A stretch of DNA of 57,657 nucleotides, the filler included, from Circinaria calcarea (Eukaryota): NCBI GenBank assembly GCA_051942165.1. It is 7 parts of 7 records of this genome, joined end to end, with 100 filler letters (N's around TTAATTAATTAA, not from the genome) between each part and the next. Parts side by side here need not be neighbours in the genome. Positions count along the whole stretch, not along the records: positions 8,270 to 16,424 come from JAVECS010001161.1; 6 more parts are not named here. One strand, written 5' to 3'. The position numbers were made by a program, and so were the translations under genes. Positions 3,701 through 56,200 of this stretch are shown here, one piece after another. Positions within the stretch are counted from its first letter, which is position 1. The number at the start of each line of letters is the position of its first letter. The notes under the pieces were generated by a model. It was not told the origin of the DNA. It saw only the letters and a program-made list of their open reading frames with translations, and did no database searches.

Positions 3701-5751
3701 ATGCAACCTGCCTTAGCCTCGGATCGGCAGTATGCCTCTCGTGTGCGGAGGTCGCTTGCAGCTCTATTTACGATCTGGAGACGTCCTTTGAGATACTTAG
3801 ACTTTCGGCTTATTATGGTCCCAAGTTCGATTATATGGACACATGGCTTGTATCTGCAATAACGGCCGTGCAACAACACCGAGAAGATATCTTTCGCTGG
3901 CTCCTACAAAATCCGAATGATCTGGATGCGCGAACTATTGAAGGTGCTACAATTATACACACTATGCTAAAGTACAACTTCACAAACCTGGTTTCTCTAG
4001 ACATAATCTTATCTAAAGGAGCTAACCCAGACCTCGTTGACGAGTTTAACAATACACCTGTCCATGTGACCCTACAACTAGGGATGGCTCAAGAGCTTAA
4101 CACGCTTCTTGATTATAACGCGAGCATCTTCTTAGAAGATCGGGATGGTAATAGGCCGCTCCATGCCGCTATTATATGTGGAAGAGAAGATGCCCTATCA
4201 CGACTACTGCAGCATCCTTTGAGAAAAATCGTAGTAGACGAGAAAGACAGTGAAGGCAGGTCTCCTCTTGCGCTTGCCGCACTAATGGGTCTTCCAAAAG
4301 TATTTGAGCAGCTCGTGGAGTCCGGAGCTAATCCGGGCGTGCTGGACCAGGCTGGTAGAGCGCCTATTCACTTAGCGGCATCGGGTTCCACTTCAGGGCA
4401 TCAGCTCGTGCTCGCCATTATACTCGCCCTTTTGCTGTCTATGGAGCAAGACGTAAATATCCTGGATGACGGAGGGAACACTGCGCTTCATGTTTCTATA
4501 ACTTCTCAAGCTCTGCTCGCGAACCCGACGTTTGATGTCTGCGAACAATTACTAGCGGCAGGTGCAGATGCGCAAATTAGAAACAACGAGGGCGATCTGC
4601 CGATTTTCCTGGCATTGCGTTTGCTGAACTTAAAGCTCTTTTCCCGATTGCTACCAATTCTATTACGCAATGGAGCGGACATCAATGCCCGAGGCTCTCT
4701 ATCGCTATCGGCATTACATTTCGCTGCGCTTAATGGGGAAGCAGATCTTGTTCTGGAGCTAATCAAACATGGAGCGTTGCCTAATTTGTCTGGAAACGTT
4801 GACCACGGTACACCTCTACATTGCTGTGCAGAAGTCTCTCCAGCCACGGTCGAAGACGAACGCATTAGGCGGACTACATTTGAACCGAAGATGTTCTCTA
4901 CAGTCATGAGAAAGGAAACTGCAGCACGATATCTGCTTGATGCAGGCGCTGACATTTTTGCAAAATTCTCAAGCTCCGAGGGACGTATACTCGAGGCGAC
5001 GCCCCTTGATATAGCATTGAAGGTAGGAATCGCTACGGTTGCTATCACACTGATTGAGGAACACTATACAAGATTAGGTGACATACTGGGTGCTTTACAT
5101 TTTGAGGTGTTGCAGCGCGCCTTCGATTACGCCGTAAGGCATCAGCAGTTTAAAATTGTTCACCGGTTCTTGCTCTCCAAGATACCTGTCGACAAGTCCT
5201 CACTGTGTAACTTCGGTCATGGGATGAAGATTCTGGCCCACGCTGTATATTACGACAAATCCGAGATCCTGCAATGCTACAAGGAAACGCAGTCTAGAAT
5301 GATATTTTTAGACAGAGTGCCGCAAAATACGAACATTCCGTCGTTGTGGGCTATTATTGGAAAATCCGGTTCAAAGGTACTCGAAGCCGAGGTGTATCTT
5401 CAATTATATTCAAGGATAGTAAGAGACAGTACAGGAAATCGCAACCCAAAAATCATCACCATTGGTCTAGATCTGGAACGAATTGTTTCAGATACTTACC
5501 GTCCTAGTAGCTGGAGTGAAGAGTCATGGGCAAAAGACTTATCATCGTATTATTCCAGAGATGGATACCCGAATATTTCCTTAGCCATGGCACTTTACCT
5601 ATGGAACATTTCTGATTGGAATGATGGTGAAGCTCTGGTGAAGCGGAGATATCTCGATGCAGCTCTGGAATGGCTTCCTGATCTAGGAGAGAACATAGCC
5701 TCAAGTATATCGAATTGGTTGGAATCGGGACTTCTGTCTCACCGGGGTTAG
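776..5751 (+). CDS. Ser/Thr protein kinase fused to a long ankyrin-repeat array (multi-exon)
   Basis: Kinase motifs across spliced exons: GEGVSYNV, VAVK, HGDLKLEN, SDFG (after the intron ending 1579), GT..YNPPE and DAWALG. ORF 2353-5751 has many ankyrin repeats (GETALSLA, GNRPLHAA, GRSPLALA, GRAPIHLA, GNTALHVS, SALHFAA, GTPLHCC). Probable ATG at 776 with a short first exon. Confidence 0.88.
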
Positions 5752-6710
5752 CCTCTACGGACTTGACAGCACGTGGTTTACCCTACCCTTATTCCCGAAT
5801 GAATCAAGGCCGCCCTTCCTATTCGCCAGCTACGTCGTATTCGGATCGGTCACACCCGAAGCGATTCTGAACCCATCCCACCCAATCATCCCCAAACTCA
5901 ACTGGCCTTCTATCCAATCAGCCTAACAGATCGACTGGCCTGCCTCCATGAAGCTCATTCTACACTACAGATCAACCAGGATCAGCGGCATGAAGCAAAA
6001 GAGTGAACCAGGGACTTTTGTCATATCTTTCCCGAAAGCAAGGCACTTTTTTCCATTCAGGAGGCATGTTCGAACAGTGCTTGGTCTCGCCCGTAAGACT
6101 CCCGTGTACTTTACTACGGTTTGAGCACAATCACCCCTTGCGGACGGACATGTTCTCGTACCGGTATACATTCAATGTCCAAGGGGTCTTCTATGTCTCG
6201 TCACCCATTTGAGGAGCTAGTAACCCGTCGAGAGTGCAAGGCGTGCTTGAAGACTTGTCTTGTGTGCGAACGTGGGCTGTTGAAGTGGAGACGAATCGAG
6301 TAGGATTATCCCCCCGCACGCCGTGCCCATAGCCTTGAGTTCTCAAATTGAAATGTCAACAACTTCAAGCTTTTCTCATTTTTCCGATGATATGACTTGT
6401 TCTATGATGGGGAGGTCCTCCAGGGGTTATACAATTTATGTTTTGTGTTTGGACAGATTTAATTCCCAAGTCTCGAGCACACCGCCCCAGAATTCGTTGG
6501 GAGTTGTGCTTTTTAGAGCTGTTGTACATACATTATCCGCACCTCTATGACGACGTATGTACGTGCAACACGATGGAAAACAACGATACCGAGCTCTACC
6601 TAGTCGCAGCTTGACTTCCTCCTCCGAACCACTACCTCACCTCTATTCTGCTCTTACCTCTCACGAGCATGAGACTGAATATGCCCCCCTTAACCATCCA
6701 TCCACCCCCC

Positions 6711-8169: not shown

Positions 8170-8269
8170 NNNNNNNNNNNNNNNNNNNNNNNNNNNNNNN
8201 NNNNNNNNNNNNNTTAATTAATTAANNNNNNNNNNNNNNNNNNNNNNNNNNNNNNNNNNNNNNNNNNNN
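8170..8269. other. Artificial contig-joining spacer (N44-TTAATTAATTAA-N44)
   Basis: The identical 100-bp spacer, with stops in all six frames, occurs six times. Confidence 0.98.
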
Positions 8270-8369
8270 TTTTTAAAACGATTTTATTCCCTTTCCATAC
8301 TGAAAACGGATCGGGCTCACTCCCATCTTGGGGAACATATAATATATATATTATATATTCATGGCTCTT

Positions 8370-8740
8370 GGACGAATATAGGCTGCTATCCTTGGTGCCC
8401 GACTGGAGAAGGTCCGAGGGTATCATTTTGGCAGAGCCGATCTGCCCACACCGCGCCCACGGTAATTCGACCGTAAAGCTCGAGATTATGGAGGAAGATG
8501 ATCTCGTGCTTCGAGCCTATAATGTGAAGATCGATACAATCGGGGTGTGCTCCCGGCTGTTGTTTTCTAGAGATTTTTACGGCAAGAAGACGCCGGATTA
8601 ACCGTTCATAACGATAGAACAGCTCTGGCATAAGGTTTATAAGAAAGAATAGTTTAATCTGGACGACAGGTATCTGAACGGTTAGACAGCATTTTTCGCG
8701 TTTATACAAACGTTCAGCAACGGCTGCGTGTAGGCCGCAG
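8370..8740 (+). pseudogene. Degenerate (RIP-like) fragment of a HET-domain heterokaryon-incompatibility-type gene
   Basis: Translates LLSLVPDWR...VLRAYNVKIDTI...TIEQLWH...FFAFIQTFSNGCV with in-frame TAA/TAG stops. It resembles the LPSWVPDW and LxVxGxxIDxI motifs found C-terminal to HET domains. Confidence 0.5.
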
Positions 8741-9134
8741 AACACGAGTGCAGACTATATCACGAGGTTTTAGATCTTATATGGCGCTGCGGAAGATAGC
8801 TAGGTATATCGTGGAAGTCTTGGGGGCATCCGATGATATATTAGAAGGGGTCCAGATAGCGGCAGGGGTTACAGAGCGCGAAAGTGATTACGAGGGGTGG
8901 AGTTGATAAGCAATGTAAGGGCTCTACCCGAGAACCCCTAGGAACCCTACGGGTGAACTATATACCGAGGTCACGAGGTATTGGCTTAGCGAGAAAGGTT
9001 TTCCTCGCGAAGCGTTACACCAGAATTCTTTAGTAATAATTTATACGCTATGCGAACCAATTGAGCACATTATCACACAATTTATCGACCCCTATCTGTA
9101 AGATCACTATACCATTCCTAAAGGATCCTTACAG

Positions 9135-10831: not shown

Positions 10832-12406
10832 CTATACCGTTTTTTTTAAGACAGCATTTTTCTCTATAGACTTTCGCTTTAGCATCCGACCCTGCCACCG
10901 CTGCCAAAATACCTAAGTAAGGAAAACAATTAATGTTAATAGAATAGTCGTTACCCAATAGCACCAGAAGCGGCCTTTGATAACTGATTGGGGCTTGGGC
11001 ACGTCCCAATCAAAGAATGGAGTTGTAAATAATGCCTGTCAATATCGTGGTTAGACTTCTTAAGGTTTCTCCATCGTATACTAGACGCTTACCGCTGTAA
11101 AAGTTCCAGGGAGAAGAGCCATGGTCAAAACCGCAATGGTTTTCATAGCAGCAGCATCCTGCCGTGAATTTTCGGCGATTCGTGTCGACTCGTATGTAAG
11201 TGCGATAGCAATCTGGTTGCTCTTTTGTTGAGAAAAATTGTAGATCTAAGCTCAGTATTAGTCTCTTACGAGAAACAGAAGCTCTCTTGATCGACTCACA
11301 ACAGCCAATTGTATTTGTATGCGCTTCTGTTCAAATGCTGCCTGGAGCAAAAGATTCTGGTTGCTGTTCCTGGTCATTTCTAGATATTGCCGAATCGTAT
11401 CATAGCTCTTGTCAAGCAATAACTTCATGTCTGGCGTGGCACTTCGGGCAGTTGCTTCAGTATACGTCAAGCATTTGTCCAGCAACATCTGTCTTGCTTC
11501 TGTTCTCATCTCCATCATGCTCAGATTTCTCGCAGTGCCATTGAGAGCTGGTATGATCGTTTCAAAGTCGGCCCGAAACGGATCTTCGCGCGGCTTGGAT
11601 GAGTACGTATGTTGACCGAGACAATGCTGAGTATAATCAAGCCTTTGCCCCTGGTGCTGCATCCTCGTCATTGTCATGATCAATAGCAAATGCATGAGCA
11701 TTACAGGCACGAATAATGGCTGCGGCGCAAGGCAACTATTACTTCGAAGTAGAGTAAGAAGGCCTTCAAAGTCGAAGACCTCACTTTGTGCTAAGATAAT
11801 AGCATAGGTCATCGCTGTATTCCTGTGATATATCAAAAGGATTGTGTAAAATCCAGCGGTGCCGATGCCCACTTTAAACAAATAGGCTAGACTCTGTCAG
11901 TTCATCGGTATTTGATGATAGGAACTTTACATGCCATCTGATGAGATTGCGTCTTTTCCTCCAAAGCTACACTGAACTGGTAAATGAGCAACGTGCGGTA
12001 TGCTATGAGTAAGGATATCGATAATATGTTGTGGAGCGGACAGTTTTTGACAAATCTGTTTAAATGTAGTTTGCGACCAAGGCATAACTACCGTCTTGTC
12101 TACTGTTGAGGTTTTGGATGTGGAAAGTAGCAGCCGAAGACGACCCTTCAGAATGTCTTGTTGGGCAACTTGTGTATGTTGGCCATCCGGACTACCGGGG
12201 ACGGGGAGACCTGAGAAGAGCCATTCCTCAACTTGGTCTGGGTAAAGAAAACCCTCTCTTATCGTACCCGTGCCATTTGGATCAGGCGAAATCTCAATAT
12301 ATGAGCATTCCGCCGGTTCAAACCCTAGACTGTAGTCTATCGAATGGTCGTATAGAGATGGGGAGCTATTCTCCTTGGTATGTATATTACTGAGAATAGG
12401 AGCCAT
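10832..12406 (-). CDS. Fungal CorA-like protein (helical domain plus C-terminal two TM helices); premature TAG at the end of the second TM helix, possibly decaying
   Basis: Four exons. The C-terminus reads ...STRIAENSRQDAAAMKTIAVLTMALLPGTFTA/ALFTTPFFDWD...FWCYWVTTILLTLIVFLT*VFWQRW. MKTIAVLTM..LPGTF is the fungal CorA-like signature; the canonical GMN is replaced by TTP. TAG at 10915-10913 sits where W is expected. Confidence 0.78.
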
Positions 12407-12473
12407 CAGCTTGATTTACAAACTAAAAAGTTTTTGATAATAGCTCAGTGTTTGCACAAAGATAATCTAATTA

Positions 12474-12695
12474 CAGTCTCATGCAATAAGTCTGCACCCC
12501 CCTGCCGGCAGCTAACTACTAGTTTATAGAAGCTGGTCTGGAGGTAGAGGATAATTATATACCGCTTTGAACTAAAATCTTATGTTTTCTCTACCGTCCT
12601 ATGCTCCAATCACGGCTTGGGAGAGTTGGACAAAAGCAGCAAGTACGCTAACAGAAAGCTAGCAAGGGGGGGTGCAGACTTATTGCATGAGACTG
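12474..12695. mobile_element. 222-bp Tc1/mariner-type MITE (mimp/impala-like)
   Basis: Perfect 29-bp TIRs (CAGTCTCATGCAATAAGTCTGCACCCCCC) flanked by TA on both sides (12472-73 and 12696-97); no ORF. Confidence 0.93.
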
Positions 12696-12956
12696 TAGGT
12701 TGCTTTCTTATTTAACAGTCCTGGAGGAGTCAAAGCGAAGTGGGAATCCATGTTATCTCTGAGTCAACCGAGACGACCTCGGCCAGATAAGAGTAGTGTA
12801 AGCCTGAGACTTGCAGAACACTCTCTTCATTCGCTAAAAATATGCAGGCAAATTACATAGCCTCGCTAAATAGTCCCTGCAGTTCAGCCTGATTCTTCGC
12901 CGAACCACTTACCACGTGTTACAGTATGAGTGGCCGACCGGTCAGAACCTCGGGTG

Positions 12957-13235
12957 ATGCTGCGCCCCGTACCCTCTATCCAGTGACGCTTCTTTCTCCT
13001 AGATCAGGCTGTGGCTACTTTTGCTCGAGCCATCCACCAGCAACCCTTCGTTATCATCGCGATTGCGGATCAGGATTTCGAGTGTTCCTGTCAACGGAAC
13101 TATATTTGTAGCCGCAGATATTGTTCGAGCGACCCAAGTGGATTGTGTGGAGAAACAGGGGTAATACAGGATGCAATAGGCTGTATAGGCTATGGTAACT
13201 ACCAGTCTATGTGTGTGGACTTCACTGTAGAATAA
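12957..13235 (+). pseudogene. Possible small Cys-rich protein remnant
   Basis: ATG 12957 is in frame with ORF 13011-13235 (7 Cys) but interrupted by TGA at 12984. The N-terminus is weakly signal-peptide-like (RFFLLDQAVATFARA). Confidence 0.25.
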
Positions 13236-13716
13236 CATAGCAGAAAACTCTGCTATGTATATTCTGCGGGGGTTAGTTCACCCGCTCCGCCCATTGGTTT
13301 CCACATAGTGTAAACCCCTATTCTTGACAGATTGAGGTATCGCTAATTGGATGTGCCCGATACGCCTCACTTGGAGCTGCATGTCGGCTTACTTATAGCC
13401 TTATCATAGCCGCCGCCCCAGCGCTCAGCCTCTGTATAGCCACGCCATATCGCTTAGCTTTAACTCACGGGCTAATTTGAGGTATAGCTTACCACCTCTC
13501 TACTAGGGGCGGTTGAGGCTAAAAACCCAGAGCCTGGTCCGCATGTTCATGCATCTCACCATGTTCAGGCCTTCATGGAAATTGGCTTCCGTCTGCTTGA
13601 AGCTTATTGATCGCTATCTGGGAGAATTTCTTTATCTCGTCGATTCAACTTCTATATCGAGTCTTGAAATCTCCCCTCTGTCTGTTGCAGACTAGTTCTC
13701 ACCGCCAGCATCACAA

Positions 13717-15243
13717 ATGCTGAACTCCTTGCAGTCTCGACCCCATTCTCAACTAGCTTTGGTTATGAGTTCAGCGCTCAAATCCATTTCGCGCGACGAA
13801 ACAGTCCGCACCCGCTGCGATGATGTCCTCGATAATTATGCAAAGTCTGAGACACAAGAGCTATACAAGAAGCTAGTGAAGCTCACCATGGAAGAATGCG
13901 AGGAATTACTAAAGAATATCAATGGGAAGGACAACAAGAAGAAGGGCGTTAAGGGAGTGGTACAAGGCAGAACGAAGGAGCATGAGTCTTTGGAGGAAAA
14001 GCTAAATATATTGAAAAATTTGAAAGAGAAGCCCAAATACATGAATACCGAGGAGTATGATTGGTTGGAGGAAAAGCTGACACGTTTGGAAAACAACAAT
14101 AAGGACCCCAAGGAGGATGAAATCTTAAAGAAAGAGCTAAAGCATTTGAAAGAGGACCCCACCAAGAATCCCGAGGACTATGACTGGTTGGAGAAAAGGC
14201 TGACAGATCTGGAGAACAACTTCAACAAGGGCCCCGACCCCAAGGAGTATGAATTTTGGCAGAAAAAGCTGACAGAGCTGGAAAAGGATCCCAACGAGGC
14301 CCCCAATTTCAGAGAATGGGTTTCTAATGATGAAAACAACATCTACGAACATCCTGAGATGGGGGACCTTGCTGGGGTTCGTATTGGGCTGTACCTTCCC
14401 GGCGACGTTCCCAGGGTCGCGCAAAAAATTGAGGAGCACTTCGACAGGAAATGGCTCTTTGGTACGGTCACGGGTGGGCGAGATACTATCAAGGGCAGAA
14501 ATATAAGCATTAAGAAACATATGAATGGGCAATGGTACTCCCGAGGTCCTGACGGGACTGATAAGCACTGGGAGCATTACGGATACAAGTCGTGGCAAGT
14601 GGTGGTCGAATGGAAGGAGCCTCTGGCTGAGCGTTTCCAATTACTCAGAAGAGAAATAAATAAAGTGGGTCTCAACTCGCTCAGAGTAGAGATCCAGGTC
14701 GGAACGGTAGTAACGCAAGCCTGGGCTGAGGTGCAACACAACATCATCTACAAAGACCCCGACAATATCGATACCACGCCGACCATAGAGCGAATAATCG
14801 ATGCCGTTAATGATATGGTAATCACGACCGATATTATGCTCAAGGAATTAGAAAAAGGCGTGGAGGATGCAAAGAAAGAAGCGGAGGAGGCAGGAAATAA
14901 ACGATTCAATGACGGCTATGACTTTTTGCATTGGTTCAAGATTACATACTTGAACCGAATGCGGGAAGAGGAGCGTAAGCTTTGGGCTTCAAATACGAAT
15001 ACGGCTCACATATTAATCAATCTGTATTCTCGACGAGCTTGTCCTAGCTTTTTTAAGTACCCAATTGAGAGGCACGGGCTTCTACGGACGAAGCTGCCCA
15101 AAGCAAACAGGTATGACATCTCTGTCCTTCTCCTAGAAGATATGGGCAATATTTCCTCCGTGCCGCTTAAGTACAAGAAATTTCTATCCGGCAGGCGTAT
15201 GAGGAACACTGCGGAACTGAACTACCGGGATTCTACTGGGTAG
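13717..15243 (+). CDS. RelA/SpoT-family nucleotidyltransferase (small alarmone synthetase-like) with an internal repeat insert
   Basis: Intronless 508-aa ORF with synthetase motifs in the expected order: RTKEHESLEEK (RxKxxxSxxxK), DLAGVRI, GYKSWQ, EIQVGT, AWAEVQHNIIYK. Confidence 0.88.
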   Translation: MLNSLQSRPHSQLALVMSSALKSISRDETVRTRCDDVLDNYAKSETQELYKKLVKLTMEECEELLKNINGKDNKKKGVKGVVQGRTKEHESLEEKLNILKNLKEKPKYMNTEEYDWLEEKLTRLENNNKDPKEDEILKKELKHLKEDPTKNPEDYDWLEKRLTDLENNFNKGPDPKEYEFWQKKLTELEKDPNEAPNFREWVSNDENNIYEHPEMGDLAGVRIGLYLPGDVPRVAQKIEEHFDRKWLFGTVTGGRDTIKGRNISIKKHMNGQWYSRGPDGTDKHWEHYGYKSWQVVVEWKEPLAERFQLLRREINKVGLNSLRVEIQVGTVVTQAWAEVQHNIIYKDPDNIDTTPTIERIIDAVNDMVITTDIMLKELEKGVEDAKKEAEEAGNKRFNDGYDFLHWFKITYLNRMREEERKLWASNTNTAHILINLYSRRACPSFFKYPIERHGLLRTKLPKANRYDISVLLLEDMGNISSVPLKYKKFLSGRRMRNTAELNYRDSTG

Positions 15244-15907
15244 GCATGAGTGTGATGGATGTCTTGAGTGGTCTACGGAGCTTATCGCACGTCACTGAGG
15301 GAGCAGCTCTCTAGCATCACGGGGAACTCAGAATCGCTTGCGGAGAGGGTATTGGCTAGAATTTGTTCGAGGTGGTATTCGCTTGAAGGATCGATGGCGG
15401 TGGGATTGAGGATGGAGCGCAGGCTTCGCATACTGTGCGCCGATGGCAGCTTATTGCACGTGTTCAAGATGTTTCTCGTGATTTAGATAGTGACAGTTAT
15501 TTAGCAGATCGGATATATCGCCGAATAGCTGCCAGTGGCATCTAGGCACGTCGACATTGGCTAGACGTTTCTGTCTAGCCGTCTCTCCACGTCAACCTCT
15601 CGCTTCTGCACGCAACGAGAAGAGAGGTCATGGCCACAGACATATTAGCCACAGCTTGGCTTTCTCTGCTTATATGTGTTAAATTACACTATCATTATGT
15701 ATGGGATGAGCCAGTAATGTAACAAGGATCATATCGCTTTTAAATTAAATAGTATTAATCAGCATGGCGACGTTGCATAAATCAATCTCACGCCGCACCC
15801 CTACGACTGACGATCGCTTCTTAGTATAATAGGGACGTTTAAAAAGTCGGATATTACCATTTTTTGGTATTGGGAATTATAAGAATTCGATAATAGAGCG
15901 ATAGTAA

Positions 15908-16419
15908 GGGCCTGTTTGGCAACCCCCGATTGTTGGAATCGATTGTCACAATCGATTTTGCCAGAATCGATTCTGAAAATCGATTTTGCGTAATTGCGAA
16001 AGGGTGTTTGGGAAGTGCGATTCTGGGCCGATTATGGAAGCTATGATTCCCCGCTTGCAAGGATCAAAATTATAGGCTAATCACTAGTAAATTTTATCAT
16101 TTCATATTGGGAAAATCATGAACTCATTCTTGCAGGTGTGTATGATTCGCAGCAGTCATCAATTCAATTAGATATGCTTCACCGGTCAAAATAGAAGTAT
16201 TATGAGGATTCGCAACATAATTATTTGATATGTAGTAAGCTAGAATAATAATTACTGCCTGTACAGCATAAAATTCATCGATATCATCCATTTTTTGTCG
16301 TGTTTTTTAGCGCAAAATCGATTTTCATAATCGCAAGAAGTAGGTCCGGACCTATTTATGCCAAGGCACTAAATTTGTATGTATTCGCAAAAATCAAAAT
16401 CGCTGTTTACCAAACGCTC
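15908..16419. mobile_element. Possible PIF/Harbinger (Tourist-like) non-autonomous element remnant
   Basis: TAA followed by GGGCCTGTTTGG at 15908, a second GGGTGTTTGG at 16001, and inverted CCAAACGCTC at 16410-16419. The AT-rich interior has repeated AATCGATT/GATTCGCA motifs. TIR pairing is imperfect. Confidence 0.4.
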
Positions 16420-16424
16420 ACTTG

Positions 16425-50233: not shown

Positions 50234-53200
50234 ATGATACGGATACCGCTGCGAATGCAGTGGCAATGGCTATGGGTGCTATCATTACTGACATTCTCAA
50301 TGGCGCGACACATCAAGATCTCATTCGGCCCATCGTCATCACCATTCACGCGCTACATCTAGGGTTCATGAGTCAATCCCACAGCTAATATGCACTCCTG
50401 ATCTGGGAATTCTTTCTTCTCAAGCGGATTTCTCGGCCAAAACTCGGCTTGTCAGCACTTGTCCTGCCGGAGAGTTTCCACTCCTTGCTACCCGCAGTTT
50501 TCGAGATGACGATTACTCATGTTCGGAAAGCAAGCCCTGCTCGAATGGCGCTTGCTGCTCGAAGGCCTCTGGATACTGTGGATACGGATCGGACTCCTGT
50601 GGTACAAGTGGCCAGTCTCCAAACGATAAATGCTGGAGCAATTGCGGCGCACATGCGGAATGCGGAAGAGACGCCGAAGTTGTTGGCACAAAATGCCCGC
50701 TCAATGTCTGCTGCAGCCGATTCGGGTTTTGCGGTATGACATCTGATTTTTGTTCGAAAACGAATGACCCCCAAACGAGCTGTCAGAGCAATTGTGATCA
50801 ACCAAAATCAGGAGCTTCTGGAGGTGACGTTCAGAGCCGAATTATTGGATACTATGAAGCCTGGAATTCTGACAAAAGATGTATTGGCATGGGATTTCAA
50901 GATATTCCCGTTAACAGTATCACTCACCTTTACTTTTCGTTTGGCTACATTTCCCCAGGATCTTTCCAGATCGCGCCAATGGACGGCCTCAGTCCAGGTT
51001 TATTCTCAGACCTTACGGCGCTGAAGAAATCGAACAGTGCACTTAAAACGATCGTTGCGCTGGGAGGATGGACTTTCAACGACAATGGTACTAGCACGCA
51101 ACCTGTTTTCAGCGACATAGTATCATCTTCGTCAAATCGGTCAAAGTTTATCAGCAATCTTCTAGCTTTTCTTCGAAATTATGGATTCGATGGTGTGGAC
51201 TTCGACTGGGAGTACCCTGGAGCACCAGACCGCGGCGGCAATAAGGACGATGGGAAGAACTTCACTCAGCTCCTTAAAGAACTCAAAGACGCGATCGCGG
51301 GTGGCCCGATCAAGTATATCGTATCTTTCACCGCTCCAACTTCCTACTGGTATCTCCGGCACTTTGACATCAAGGGCAGCGTCGAACAAGTTGACTGGGT
51401 CAACGTCATGAGCTATGATCTTCATGGCGTATGGGATGCAAACAATCCAATCGGTTCTCAAGTTCTTGCTCACACTAACCTAACTGAAATCAAGGAGGCG
51501 CTGGACCTATTTTGGAGGAACGATGTACCTGCTGACAAGATTGTTATGGGACTTGGATTCTATGGGCGATCCTTCCAATTGGTCGACCCATCTTGCTCGA
51601 CGCCTGGCTGTGGATTCAAGGGTGGTGCCGCACCTGGTGATTGCACTGATAGTTCTGGAACATTATCATACAAGGAAATCGTGGACATTATCCGCAAATA
51701 TAAGCTGACGCCGTTCTACGATAAAACCAACGCAGTCAAATATATTACTTGGAAGGTGAGTTTGGATCTTTTTGGCACAGTAGAGGAAGGGTAACAGGAC
51801 GGAAAAATGTTAAATTGTTGGCTAACCCTTGATCAGTCTGACCAATGGGTGTCTTTCGACGATAAAGAGACTATTCAACAGAAAATCACGTTTGCCAATG
51901 ATCAAGGTCTGGGTGGACTTTTGATATGGGCGCTGGATCTTGATACTCCAGACCTTGATGCACTCCAAGCCGTTATATACCCCAAAACTCTCGGCTCGCG
52001 AGGCAAGGCGGCTAGCTCTGTCAACAACTGGCAAGATGCAAATGGAGGCGATTGCCATACGACTGATTGCGGTGTCACTGACTGCACACCTGGCGAGACT
52101 CGCATCACTATCCAACCGTGCGAGGAACCAGACTTCTTCACTGGCGAAGCTCTTTCAACTGCTCTGTGCTGCCCACTATCTTCCGCCCCTGACCCTAAGA
52201 AATGCCAATGGCGAGGTACTGGATTTGATTGTAAGTTTTCGCATTATTACTTAATTGAAGCCGCTGTCAAATCTAATTAATCTCCGCACGTGCAGGCAAC
52301 GGCCAGTGCCATCCTAATGAAGTGGCTTTGGAGTCTTCGGTTTGGGGTACGTATTGCTTTAAAACCAGTTCAGCGCAGGTTCGACTAATTATTATTTTAG
52401 GCGATCAGCCCCTGTATTGTTCTGACGGGCACAAATTCTATTGTTGTGAAGTTCCGGAACAAAAACAGCCTAAGTGTCATTGGACCGGTAAGTTGTTAAT
52501 TGTCTGTTACAAATTCAAAAGAATTGCAACCCAAAGTTATATCATTTTGTCCACGAGAATGTCTTATTACACGCATATAGCAAAGTGTTTGATTTGGATA
52601 ATATCGGCGAGATTCATCCTATTTTCTTAATACCAATATCTCTAATTTGATTTCACAATCATGCTTAGGCTCTTTACTAATATTTTCGCAGACTGTGGAG
52701 AGACATGTGATCTCACTAAGGAAAATAAGATGACGTGGGCATTTCAAGATTGTTTTTTAGAACCCAAGGAGCTCTGCTGCGACAAGAGCGAAGCGTGGAC
52801 GAATTGTGCATGGCATGGAAAGCCTGGAAGCTGCTTTGACAACCACTGTGACACAGGCAAGTTGCTTATAACTCAACGTGATGGTGCAATCATTAACTAG
52901 TGTCCAGGTCATCAGGTGTCGTTGGCAATAAGCTATGACGGCGAAGGAGAAGACTGCGGTTGGAGACTTGAACGACAAAGATCATTCTGTTGCGATCCTC
53001 CTACAGGCGAATCACCTTTCTTACCTGTCCCCCTGGAGTATTTGTTCCCTCACCCACCCGTCAACGATGGTGCTAGTACCGATTTCAAGTTGGAAGTAGA
53101 CCCAACTTATGGAGGCAAATTAGACAAGCCTTTTAGTGACAACCCTAACAACGCCCAGTTTGGGTTTGTTGTTATGACCTCCCCGGAAGAACTTCAAGTC

Positions 53201-56200
53201 TCACTGGATAAGCGGGACGGATCTCACTGTGAGGTTTTCGATTGTTTGGACGCGGTCAGCGAAGAAGAGCAGACCGTCCGAATGACGTGCGCCGATTATT
53301 CCGAGAGCAGTACTTGTGATAAGATTCATCTTGGCTATGGCGTTCCTGGTACCATTCTCGAAATGCCCGAGGGTGTATGTAAAGTACCTCAGTGTTGTCA
53401 TCGATTTGCTAATGAATGCAGTGTGGTCCTGGCCGATACGCAGTTGCCAAATCTTTGGAGATATCTGCTGATCAAGGTCTTCCCGATCATCTATTTAAGC
53501 GGGGACTTGGTGACTCAACAGTATACGATCTAACTTTCGACTACGATTTCCGACGGGTCCCTCGAGAGCTTGGAGATACACAAGTTCGCATCGACTATAG
53601 TAATGAGCCGGGCTACTGGGACAAGGTCGTTGATGAGCCTGCAATGCAGAGAAAGAGAAGCTTGGCAGATCACGGAGGCAATCATCGCAGGTGGTTGGAA
53701 GAGGCCTGGCGCGAGGATATGCACAGTGACAGCCTGAGCCGGGAAGAGCTTCACAGAAGATGGTTCGGTTCAGATGCCCTCGCGTGGCTTAAAGGCTTGA
53801 TCAACGGAGTAAGCGGGGGACCCGTGATTGCCAACTCGTTTACTGAGGATTTTACCGTCATCTTGATGAACGAACAATGGTCGTGCAATATCAAAGGTGT
53901 GGATGTTGATGCACGGCTGAAGGTTCAGGCTAATACGCATGTCGAAATGGATACTAATTTTGGGTTCACGCTCATTACAACATTAGCATTTCCTCCGGAT
54001 CTCAGTAAATCATACCTGTACTTCCGCAATAAAGGTGAAGTCACATCCAAATTCAACATAGATGCAATTGCTACAGCAATGTTTACCAGCGGTGACGTCG
54101 AGCTCCTGGCAGCTGACAAGTTCGGTGTAGGATTTACTGTTCCAGGTAAGTTGATCAATTATTAATAAAGTCTCGCTAACGAATTAATCCAAGGGATACT
54201 TACAATTGGACCTAACTTCAAGTTGGTCGGTGCAATCGAGGGAGGGATTACGGCAAGAGCGAACTTCGAGGCTCGTGTTAAGCTGGCGAAATGGGATGTG
54301 AAGCAAACCTTTCCGGACGTAAACCCCGACTGGGACCCGGCGGCTACGGCAAATCCAGATAGGGATGGGACCGACAAGATTGGTGAACCTCAATTCGATG
54401 CTTCGGTGTCAGCTGAGGGTTACATTAAAGCTTCTATCAAGCCGTATGTGTCCTTCAAACTTGATTTCTGGATATTTATTTCGGCGTTACTCATACCTAA
54501 ACAGGATAATAAATTTTGGAATCGACTTTAAACCTACATTTCTAGATGTGGCGAGCTGCACGGTAAGCTTAGTCGGCGATGGCCATGTTACTCTCTACGC
54601 GGAAGGCTCCAGTGGGACCGGCGAAACATCATTCTGTTATGGTGCTACTGCTGGAGCAGATCTTTATGCCTCAGTTCAGGCCCCTGAAGTATTTGGCTGG
54701 AAATTGTCTAAACCTAGGTTCGATATTGGATCGTCGCCGGCGATAGATATCGTTCCGAAGAAGTGTCCAATTGGCAGTCGTGACTTGTCTGAGATCTCTT
54801 CAACGCCGTATGAAATCAGCAATCCCAACTCGTCCAGCCTAGAACCGTGGAAAGAATCTTTCAATGATTATAGATTAGCCAGGAGAGCCCAGGTATATGG
54901 CCCTCCAGATATCTTCAAATTAAAGAAGCTCGGCTGTCCGGGAGGAACTACCTCCGGCGATTTCCCCTGCCCGCTCTGCAACAATGGTCTTGGAGACTCA
55001 GCTTTCCGTCTTATGGCTCGAGCTGACGGGGGTAGCTGTCCCTTTATAGCTGGTCGCACAGACGAATCAACTTGCTCAGGCTTAAGCGCCAGAGATGTGT
55101 ATTCTGACAGTTTCGAGGGCAACAGATCATATGGTGAAGTGTCGGAATCACATGGCTCTCTTGTGAAAAGAACGGCGAAAACTGCACAATGGCGCGAAAA
55201 CGGTGTCGACTATACACTCGATTTTGGTCCGTATCCTGAATGTGGCAAGGCACGAGACTTGGGAACGGTCACTAAATGGTATGGCTTCGATGAGTATGGA
55301 ACAACAACTCCAGCCTGCCCTACAGACCTTCAAAAGTTCGCGGTAAACCAAGTCAACCCGTCGAACTATCAAAGTAAGACAAGCCTGGTCCTAGATGGCT
55401 TCTATTACTTATTATAATACAGCCGATCACATATTCGAAGCCCAGACCGTACTCCAATTTCTTGATTTCCTTCGTGGGAATATACAATACTCGCAAATTA
55501 ATATTCCAATACCCAACGGTTATACCGCTGCAGATTCAGATTGGGTCTCTAGGGTGCTAATAGATCTCTTCGCCGGAGGGTTCCACCCAGTAAATAATCA
55601 AAACCTGTTTCACGTGATTACAGACGCTCTCGGCAGCGTTGACAAACCTGGACGTATGGCTCTAGTTTATAAGGGAGTCAACAGGAAGAAAGCAGACTTC
55701 TTTGCTTTTGACACACCAGAATACTACGACACCAAAGGTATCAGAAATACGAAGATATTGCAGCGAGATGTAAGTTTCCTTCTCCCTTAGCTAGCCATAT
55801 ATTCGTCGAATCTCTGCAGTATTGTGCAGGTGGTATATCAGGCTTGGGAAATGGACGACTTAACTGACACTCCACCTTTCTCATACCCAGACCGCCGGAG
55901 TCTTTCAATATCTCACCCAACCCAATATCCAAACCAAATGGCAAGAAACCTCCAAAGCAATCGAAAATGTTTTAATTACCTTTGACAGCACATATGCCTG
56001 GAACGACCTTGGCCAACTCCAGCGTCCAGCTAGGCCTAATGCTGGTCTTCGCGACCTGTATTGCTATTGGATAGATACCTACCTGAGACGCATCGAAAAC
56101 AATGCAGCCGCTTGGGCGACCAATGCTAAAAATACCCTAGAGAACACAGCACAAGGTACAGGACAGGAGGGCAAGAATTGGATTGCCACTGCACTGACCA

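Follow-up and report, generated by a model that had tools for sequence, protein, structure and literature searches.

Bacterial nucleotide-messenger defence, as in CBASS, Pycsar and Thoeris, makes use of TIR effectors, and in CBASS and type III CRISPR systems some effectors are TIR proteins and others membrane proteins. One type III CRISPR arrangement comprises Cas10, SAM-AMP, CorA and NrN (PMC10600005). The closest fungal systems are the HET genes linked to nucleotide-related partners at Neurospora het-6/un-24 and Podospora het-B (Bh/Bp) (PMC10890737), and the RelA/SpoT-family proteins, namely the divRel small alarmone synthetases (SAS; PMC3153485) and the RelA_SpoT-NACHT NOD-like receptors (NLRs; PMC4986451, PMC12258605). 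Here we analyse a 57,657-nucleotide stretch of the Circinaria calcarea assembly GCA_051942165.1 (the window), in which an SAS-like gene stands head to head with a CorA-like membrane protein gene on its own 8155-bp contig (window 8270-16424). Comparison with related loci shows that the conserved neighbours of this SAS are a HET gene and a Nudix hydrolase gene, and that the window very probably holds the remains of such a cluster with the CorA-like gene as a bystander.

The cluster resembles bacterial messenger defence in that genes for a nucleotide-making enzyme, a candidate death effector and a hydrolase are linked; it differs in being eukaryotic, with a RelA/SpoT enzyme as putative writer, a HET protein as putative effector and no CRISPR or cyclase parts. 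As in het-6/un-24 and het-B, a HET gene is tightly linked to a nucleotide-related partner, and the HET protein here carries a Het-6_barrel; however, the partner is a synthetase rather than a ribonucleotide reductase or a PII-like sensor, and a Nudix gene is attached. The synthetases have the same Pfam domain, known in ascomycetes, as divRel and the RelA_SpoT-NACHT NLRs, but they stand alone or are fused directly to ankyrin or WD40 repeats without NACHT, and the available parts of PMC3153485, PMC4986451 and PMC12258605 do not mention fixed HET and Nudix neighbours. Compared with RelP/RelQ and the toxSAS enzymes (FaRel2, CapRel, Tas1; PMC11782079), the fold and the ATP/Mg-site residues are alike, whereas GY.S.H has become GYKSWQ, EIQIRT has become EIQVGT, and there is no small alarmone hydrolase (SAH) or antitoxin gene. 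A literature search, with subscription papers and supplements largely outside its coverage, returned no description of an SAS-HET-Nudix cluster, and the name 'FunRel' was not found in PMC7229694. Each part belongs to an established family, and bacteria offer precedents for the logic; within the literature searched, the cluster itself is undescribed.

Neighbours of the synthetase in related loci

A metagenome scan for relatives of the window SAS gave 12 loci, of which 11 (105 kb in total) were real; the remaining one, L030, was dropped as a bacterial false match (36 aa, E 5e-4). Two of the 11 (L020 and L029) are uninformative for HET, having 266 and 910 bp of upstream sequence, and in all nine of the others a HET gene faces away from the SAS. 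The Pfam HET domain was found at E 1e-21 to 1e-25 in seven of the eight first exons tested, the eighth belonging to a deletion allele, and the HET gene of L027, which has a frameshift, was assigned by tblastn. These nine loci represent six lineages whose SAS cores are 44-55% identical, and the gap between the SAS and HET start codons was 504-1237 bp in the seven loci measured. Intact homologues of the partner are het-6-like, typically with PF06985 followed by PF26639 (Het-6_barrel).

Annotated fungal genomes gave the same pairing. A search with the C-terminal profile of the partner returned 495 HET proteins, of which 120 were listed, and the counts that follow refer to those 120. For 11 of 24 sequentially tagged SAS homologues the next locus tag is a HET gene (Gaeumannomyces, Lasiodiplodia, Ciborinia, Colletotrichum, two Fusarium, Nemania, two Monosporascus, Pestalotiopsis and Xylaria), a set of genera which we take to span Sordariomycetes, Leotiomycetes and Dothideomycetes; among the other tagged homologues, one has a HET gene two steps away and one lies on a contig of the same size as that of a HET gene. 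Of 97 SAS proteins on contigs of at least 4.2 kb, 41 lie on a contig exactly equal in size to that of a listed HET protein, compared with a mean of 0.17 and a maximum of 2 in a shifted-size control. Three SAS proteins that appeared unpaired are 99-100% identical to SAS genes of loci bearing HET, so 41/97 is an undercount. The listed HET proteins fall into two clades, of which one is paired with SAS in 44 of 85 cases and the other in 0 of 35 (p 3e-9). The second is a sister het-6-like clade from Trichoderma, Annulohypoxylon, Exophiala, Bacidia and others.

We compared SAS and HET divergence across 42 pairs, after dropping one 2184-bp contig match as too short for both genes and adding one pair known from tags only. 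Distances were correlated (rho 0.41, Mantel p 5e-4), with a mean of 54% for SAS and 33% for HET, and the two trees had 10 supported splits in common. One shared split is an ankyrin-fused group uniting Gaeumannomyces, Monosporascus, Podospora and Cladorrhinum, which belong to three fungal orders. Common descent accounts for part of the agreement; the cross-order group suggests that the SAS-HET pair may move or persist as a unit.

A third gene, encoding a PF00293 Nudix hydrolase (E 1e-12 to 2e-15), is tail to tail with HET in L023-L028. Its end lies 28-72 bp from the HET stop codon in six of the eight loci with sequence there (four of five lineages), and the Nudix proteins are 59-76% identical between lineages. 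Exact look-up of five of them gave no match; the Nudix gene is known here from the metagenome loci alone. The genes for synthase, candidate effector and hydrolase are thus linked and conserved, and we hold with high confidence that the SAS-HET-Nudix cluster is real and that the CorA-like gene is a bystander. L021 is an allele of L023 in which two deletions remove Nudix and most of HET, although misassembly is possible; despite this loss its SAS-ankyrin-WD40 frame is open. A few kb from this deleted allele, at L021 3434-7082, there is a sesB-like/NACHT/ankyrin NLR gene.

The locus in the window

The following features make up the locus (L019 is the closest relative).

8317-8907, + strand: 3' part of a het-6-like HET gene, inverted, with stops and a frameshift (tblastn 66% to the L019 HET, E 5e-63; 79% DNA identity over 547 bp)
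10832-12406, - strand: fungal CorA-like two-helix membrane gene (exons 12406-11935, 11886-11300, 11245-11093 and 11035-10832)
10913-10915, - strand: premature TAG in the second membrane helix of the CorA-like gene, with the last 27 residues lost; Trp in Bacidia gigantensis
13035-13098, - strand: HET 5' coding scraps in the normal head-to-head position, deletion-collapsed (tblastn 62% over 21 aa, E 0.02)
13096-13764, no strand: shared HET/SAS intergenic region, collinear with L019 2414-2458, 2462-2569 and 2767 onward at 72-80%
13765-15243, + strand: SAS gene, intronless, 492 aa, PF04607; open and apparently complete

Judged by these matches, the window carries a disabled and rearranged copy of the cluster, in which Nudix and HET would have been tail to tail and HET and SAS head to head. 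In L019 (77% DNA identity) the head-to-head slot holds an undamaged HET gene. The HET 5' scraps also give two DNA matches to L019 (32 and 22 bp, E 0.01 each), which are weak singly but are collinear with stronger neighbours. The intergenic region is interrupted by a MITE-like (miniature inverted-repeat transposable element) insertion of ~200 bp at about 13142-13341, of which 13172-13289 matches another contig of the same genome. The HET 3' part has several stops, and of the 42 changes there that are specific to the window, 38 are C>T or G>A and 2 the reverse, compared with 4/14, 10/28 and 33/73 in the reference rows (Fisher p 5e-5); by this base-change pattern the damage is RIP-like (repeat-induced point mutation). 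No excess of such changes was found in the SAS core (16/30 versus 6/19, 19/33 and 22/49). No match to Nudix was found in the window (the best in the genome was 34%), and no intact HET orthologue was found in this fragmented assembly (next best 33%).

The halves of the HET wreck flank the CorA-like gene. The simplest history would be an inversion with one break inside HET, which turned a neighbouring CorA-like gene round and set it between the halves; on the best reading, the CorA-like gene was resident at the locus before the rearrangement and is a bystander to the SAS. An earlier note, made on this DNA from the sequence alone, had described an intronless RelA/SpoT-family open reading frame divergent from a CorA-like gene across about 1.3 kb in a HET-relic-rich contig. 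The open reading frame and the spacing held up, the distance from ATG to ATG being 1358 bp. A HET relic is indeed present, but it is not background, as it is the former partner of the SAS itself.

The synthetase and its predicted active site

The SAS lies in an open frame at 13696-15243 (+), with the ATG at 13765 placed by comparison with homologues. PF04607 (29.3 bits, cut-off 27) is its only Pfam match, the protein thus having a SYNTH domain without an HD hydrolase domain, and the motifs GYKSWQ and EIQVGT are present. A profile of the family matches RelP/RelQ at E 8e-11, and a structure model of a homologue matches RelQ 5dec (E 2.5e-8, TM score 0.73 by target). A search that scored 8000 candidates of 279-889 aa provided a set of 110 fungal homologues and, the window SAS itself aside, matches peaked at 63% identity. 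The degenerate SAS motif found 0 viral contigs. With the SAS profile, GTDB genomes gave 31 candidate stretches and 0 confirmed relatives, so we claim no prokaryotic donor.

The residues of the ATP/Mg site and the catalytic residues (roles taken from FaRel2, PMC11782079) are kept in 101-110 of the 110 homologues. The window SAS retains R69, K71, S75, K79, D201, G204, R206, Y274, E309 and Q311 (pattern R-x-K, S, K, D-x-x-G-x-R, E-x-Q), and its equivalent of FaRel2 R77 is Ile. On the acceptor side the Tyr is invariant across the homologues, the Syn3 His (GY.S.H) is replaced by Gln in 109 of 110, and the Syn4 Arg (EIQIRT) by Gly in 106 of 110. Loss of alarmone synthesis has been linked to a reduced basic patch around the acceptor site (PMC11782079) and, given the loss of basic acceptor residues in this clade, the product need not be (p)ppGpp. 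Of the 81 conserved columns, the window SAS deviates from the consensus at 4 (median 3).

Parts of the protein outside the active site are variable. N-terminal to the catalytic Asp, at window 14000-14300, there is a charged, internally repeated insert with units of ~41 codons (72-74% DNA identity), and its length varies among close homologues. Ankyrin repeats are present in 28 of the 110 homologues, and in L021 (9998-12229) and L023 (9496-11928) the SAS is fused directly to ankyrin and HET-E-like WD40 repeats without NACHT. These two alleles differ at 3 of 267 SAS positions, by 67 gap columns in the ankyrin part (the length of two repeats) and at scattered WD40 positions. No NACHT or NB-ARC domain was found in the window SAS or in the 110 homologues, a set of 279-889 aa from which longer forms are absent because they were not searched.

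The CorA-like gene and the second synthetase

The CorA-like gene has four exons in one frame and three introns. Two of the introns are confirmed by gaps of 18 and 19 residues against Bacidia gigantensis KY384_001666 (71% identical), whereas the first, 11934-11887, is a putative GC-AG intron. The protein has no Pfam match; its label comes from ESM Atlas feature matches at 0.93, with PF01544 on 31% of one cluster and PF26616 on 100% of another, and it ends in two hydrophobic helices. A search with the read-through protein gave 2 matches. TTP replaces the GMN filter that follows the first helix in CorA, as it does in Bacidia gigantensis, and all nine relatives whose tail matched the pattern are non-GMN (AMP, AIP, SVP, SMP, TTP or TDD), so GMN loss is a trait of the family.

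We built one CorA hidden Markov model (HMM) from 93 relatives of the window protein and one from two-helix tails. In the 11 related SAS loci neither found a fungal CorA-like gene at E up to 1 (0/11), while the controls, namely the window gene and a second CorA-like gene of the same genome, were recovered. Sequence extends past the SAS by more than 5 kb in one direction or the other in just four of the 11 loci and, as the flanks are short at most loci, the stronger point against CorA is that the head-to-head slot is occupied by another gene. The MRS2 gene downstream in L021 and L023 belongs to the CorA family and keeps GMN; as a housekeeping gene it was left out of the partner counts. None of the 15 contigs bearing the closest CorA-like relatives equals in size any of 109 SAS-bearing contigs; three of the 15 belong to a cluster whose representative is 91% identical to the window protein. 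An SAS-CorA-like pair at this locus is therefore not supported. The earlier note was right that the CorA-like gene is real, with TTP for GMN and a late TAG; the three introns and the family-wide lack of GMN are corrections to it. The test that it set, enrichment of CorA-like neighbours near related SAS genes, went against the pair and, of its suggested messenger-synthase and pore-effector module, the idea of a synthetase with an effector is supported while the CorA-like effector is wrong for this SAS.

The only other PF04607 gene of the genome, on contig C1284 (2680-4215, -; locus L003), is 26-30% identical to this clade (27% to the window SAS) and has GYYEADH and EIQVRT, which are canonical acceptor motifs. 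It stands head to head, across ~0.6 kb, with a CorA-like gene (4767-6274, +) that exceeds the PF01544 cut-off, is broken by stops and frameshifts and belongs to a different subfamily from the CorA-like gene of the window. Within L003 250-6274, an in-frame stop parts this SAS from an ankyrin frame, and an NLR-like relic with WD40 repeats lies beyond. With CorA-family genes on at least 18 contigs of the 31.5 Mb assembly, this adjacency is unlikely to arise by uniform chance, although it is one instance. The CorA effector idea may therefore apply to the other SAS clade.

Discussion

We propose that the cluster encodes a nucleotide-messenger mechanism with the SAS as writer, the TIR-like HET protein as reader and the Nudix hydrolase as eraser, and we put the probability of this at about 0.5. 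The SAS, to which variable repeats of the ankyrin or WD40 type are often joined, would be switched on by a non-self cue and would transfer pyrophosphate from ATP to an acceptor, perhaps not GDP or GTP because throughout the clade Gln and Gly are fixed at two positions on the acceptor side. The product would activate the TIR-related HET protein, leading to death of the cell compartment, while the Nudix enzyme would remove or trim the product and so set the threshold. The near-invariant catalytic residues, the sensor-like repeats, the dedicated hydrolase and the fact that the SAS outlasts HET and Nudix all argue for this mechanism; an SAS that stays open after loss of the other two genes, as in the window and L021, is what one would expect if the writer acts ahead of the costly part. 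Bacterial Nudix enzymes act on alarmones (PMC3153485), and the same paper, in 2011, noted that ascomycete SAS lack a cognate hydrolase (no RelA/SpoT homologue, RSH) and raised Nudix as a possibility. The HET domain has been described as a remote TIR homologue of unproven activity (PMC10197012; homology also in PMC4986451). In a fold search with a HET model the top structural rows were TIR domains, a weak match (best Z 4.1, rmsd 3.1, 89 residues aligned) in which the C-terminal part was barely tested, and Foldseek gave no match for the model at E 0.001 or better.

Several observations weigh against the messenger mechanism or against the gene associations that it builds on. Among the 120 of 495 HET matches listed, 11 of the 24 tagged SAS homologues have no partner and 56 of the 97 SAS proteins have no HET contig of the same size, and in two genomes, Akanthomyces muscarius and Monosporascus sp. 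GIB2, a wide gap in numbering separates the listed SAS tags from the listed HET tags. Kin share neighbours, and congruent trees are not by themselves proof of function. The link to Nudix rests on four lineages and one scan, and L022 has no Nudix over 2.4 kb. The likeness of HET to TIR is weak, as the best Z of 4.1 indicates, and the HET protein showed no nucleotide-binding domain. In the SAS clade the RelP/RelQ His and Arg are replaced and one phosphate-binding Arg is lost, so a free nucleotide may not be what the enzyme makes. The window SAS departs from the consensus at Gly350, one of its four off-consensus columns, which is held by 108 of 109 others, and this copy may therefore be damaged.

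Of the other explanations, the one that we take most seriously, while still finding it unlikely, is a guard or allorecognition pair in which HET would recognise the SAS protein or a non-self allele, in the manner of HET-6 with UN-24 and of Bh with the PII-like Bp, catalysis being incidental or the SAS a decoy. The HET and Het-6_barrel architecture of the partner, the documented linkage of HET to nucleotide-related partner genes (PMC10890737), the faster divergence of SAS than of HET and the altered acceptor residues would all fit such a pair; however, the donor-site and catalytic residues are almost invariant, and direct recognition needs no dedicated adjoining Nudix. It is a good deal more doubtful that the SAS is a toxin, acting by tRNA-CCA pyrophosphorylation or (pp)pApp, with Nudix as its antidote and HET as a parallel effector. 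Bacterial toxSAS enzymes provide the precedent, and those that target tRNA have a reduced basic acceptor patch (PMC11782079); this clade has lost basic residues on the acceptor side. Against this, the window and L021 both retain an open SAS frame with Nudix and HET lost, which counts solely against a constitutive toxin, and the best fold matches are RelQ/RelP, with no toxSAS among the matches listed.

Two further accounts seem to us very improbable. In one, the neighbouring CorA-like pore would respond to a messenger made by the SAS, the two being an old pair or the pore a recent replacement for HET as effector once that gene had died. The two genes are head to head, a CorA-family gene so close would be uncommon by uniform chance given the number of contigs that bear one, and the other SAS of the genome also faces a CorA-like gene. 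However, none of the 11 related loci has the pair and L019 has an intact HET in the slot; the CorA-like gene of the window is embedded in HET remains, is interrupted by a stop and is no near relative of the one that faces the other SAS, and its relatives of 71-91% identity are on contigs that match no SAS. As an old pair, SAS-CorA is largely refuted. The other, equally remote, is that the three genes are cargo of a mobile element without any functional link, for which the patchy distribution, differing flanks, order-mixing clade and many repeats at the locus could be cited. Gene order and orientation have nevertheless been kept while SAS cores fell to ~45% identity and flanks came to differ, and no transposase was found in the open reading frames scanned.

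If the writer-reader-eraser mechanism is extended to both SAS clades, repeat-gated RelA/SpoT enzymes would make a messenger other than classical (p)ppGpp for a death pathway of filamentous fungi, Nudix would erase it, and the effector slot would be modular, filled by a TIR-like HET protein where the SAS has GYKSWQ/EIQVGT and by a CorA-like pore where its motifs are canonical. We offer this wider scheme tentatively, as possible rather than probable. The cluster bears on what fungal RelA/SpoT synthetases do and how their product is degraded (PMC3153485), and also on how HET is activated outside NLRs and whether HET domains are enzymes (PMC10197012); its compactness, at three genes, makes these questions testable. 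Were nucleotide signalling to be confirmed, bacterial messenger-based immunity would have in this cluster a counterpart among fungi. The window copy is itself a wreck, useful for having pointed to the cluster and for showing that an SAS can outlast its partners.

Other features of the window

The assembly is fungal and fragmented (31.5 Mb, 5512 contigs), and the window consists of seven of its contigs joined by N linkers. These artificial linkers, at window 8170-8269 and five similar sites, consist of 44 N, TTAATTAATTAA and 44 N, and gene adjacency across them is meaningless. Three repeats lie on the contig of the SAS.

8914-9134, no strand: 220-bp dispersed repeat, truncating the 3' end of the HET relic; the Nudix gene that should follow is missing
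12472-12697, no strand: MITE-like element in the SAS/CorA-like spacer, bounded by perfect 31-bp terminal inverted repeats
15905-16424, no strand: MITE-like dispersed repeat at the end of the contig, its termini inverted (self-matches; matches of 86-88% to contigs C4536 and C5202)

The 220-bp family has at least 40 copies in the genome (392 candidates), with ~40 scored at 88-93% identity. Most of the other contigs of the window carry housekeeping genes. The first contig (window 859-5751) has protein kinase fragments followed by a 1146-aa ankyrin-repeat frame, possibly a single kinase-ankyrin gene of immune type, and window 50292-55790 has a chitin-binding GH18 chitinase gene followed by several frames without a Pfam match.

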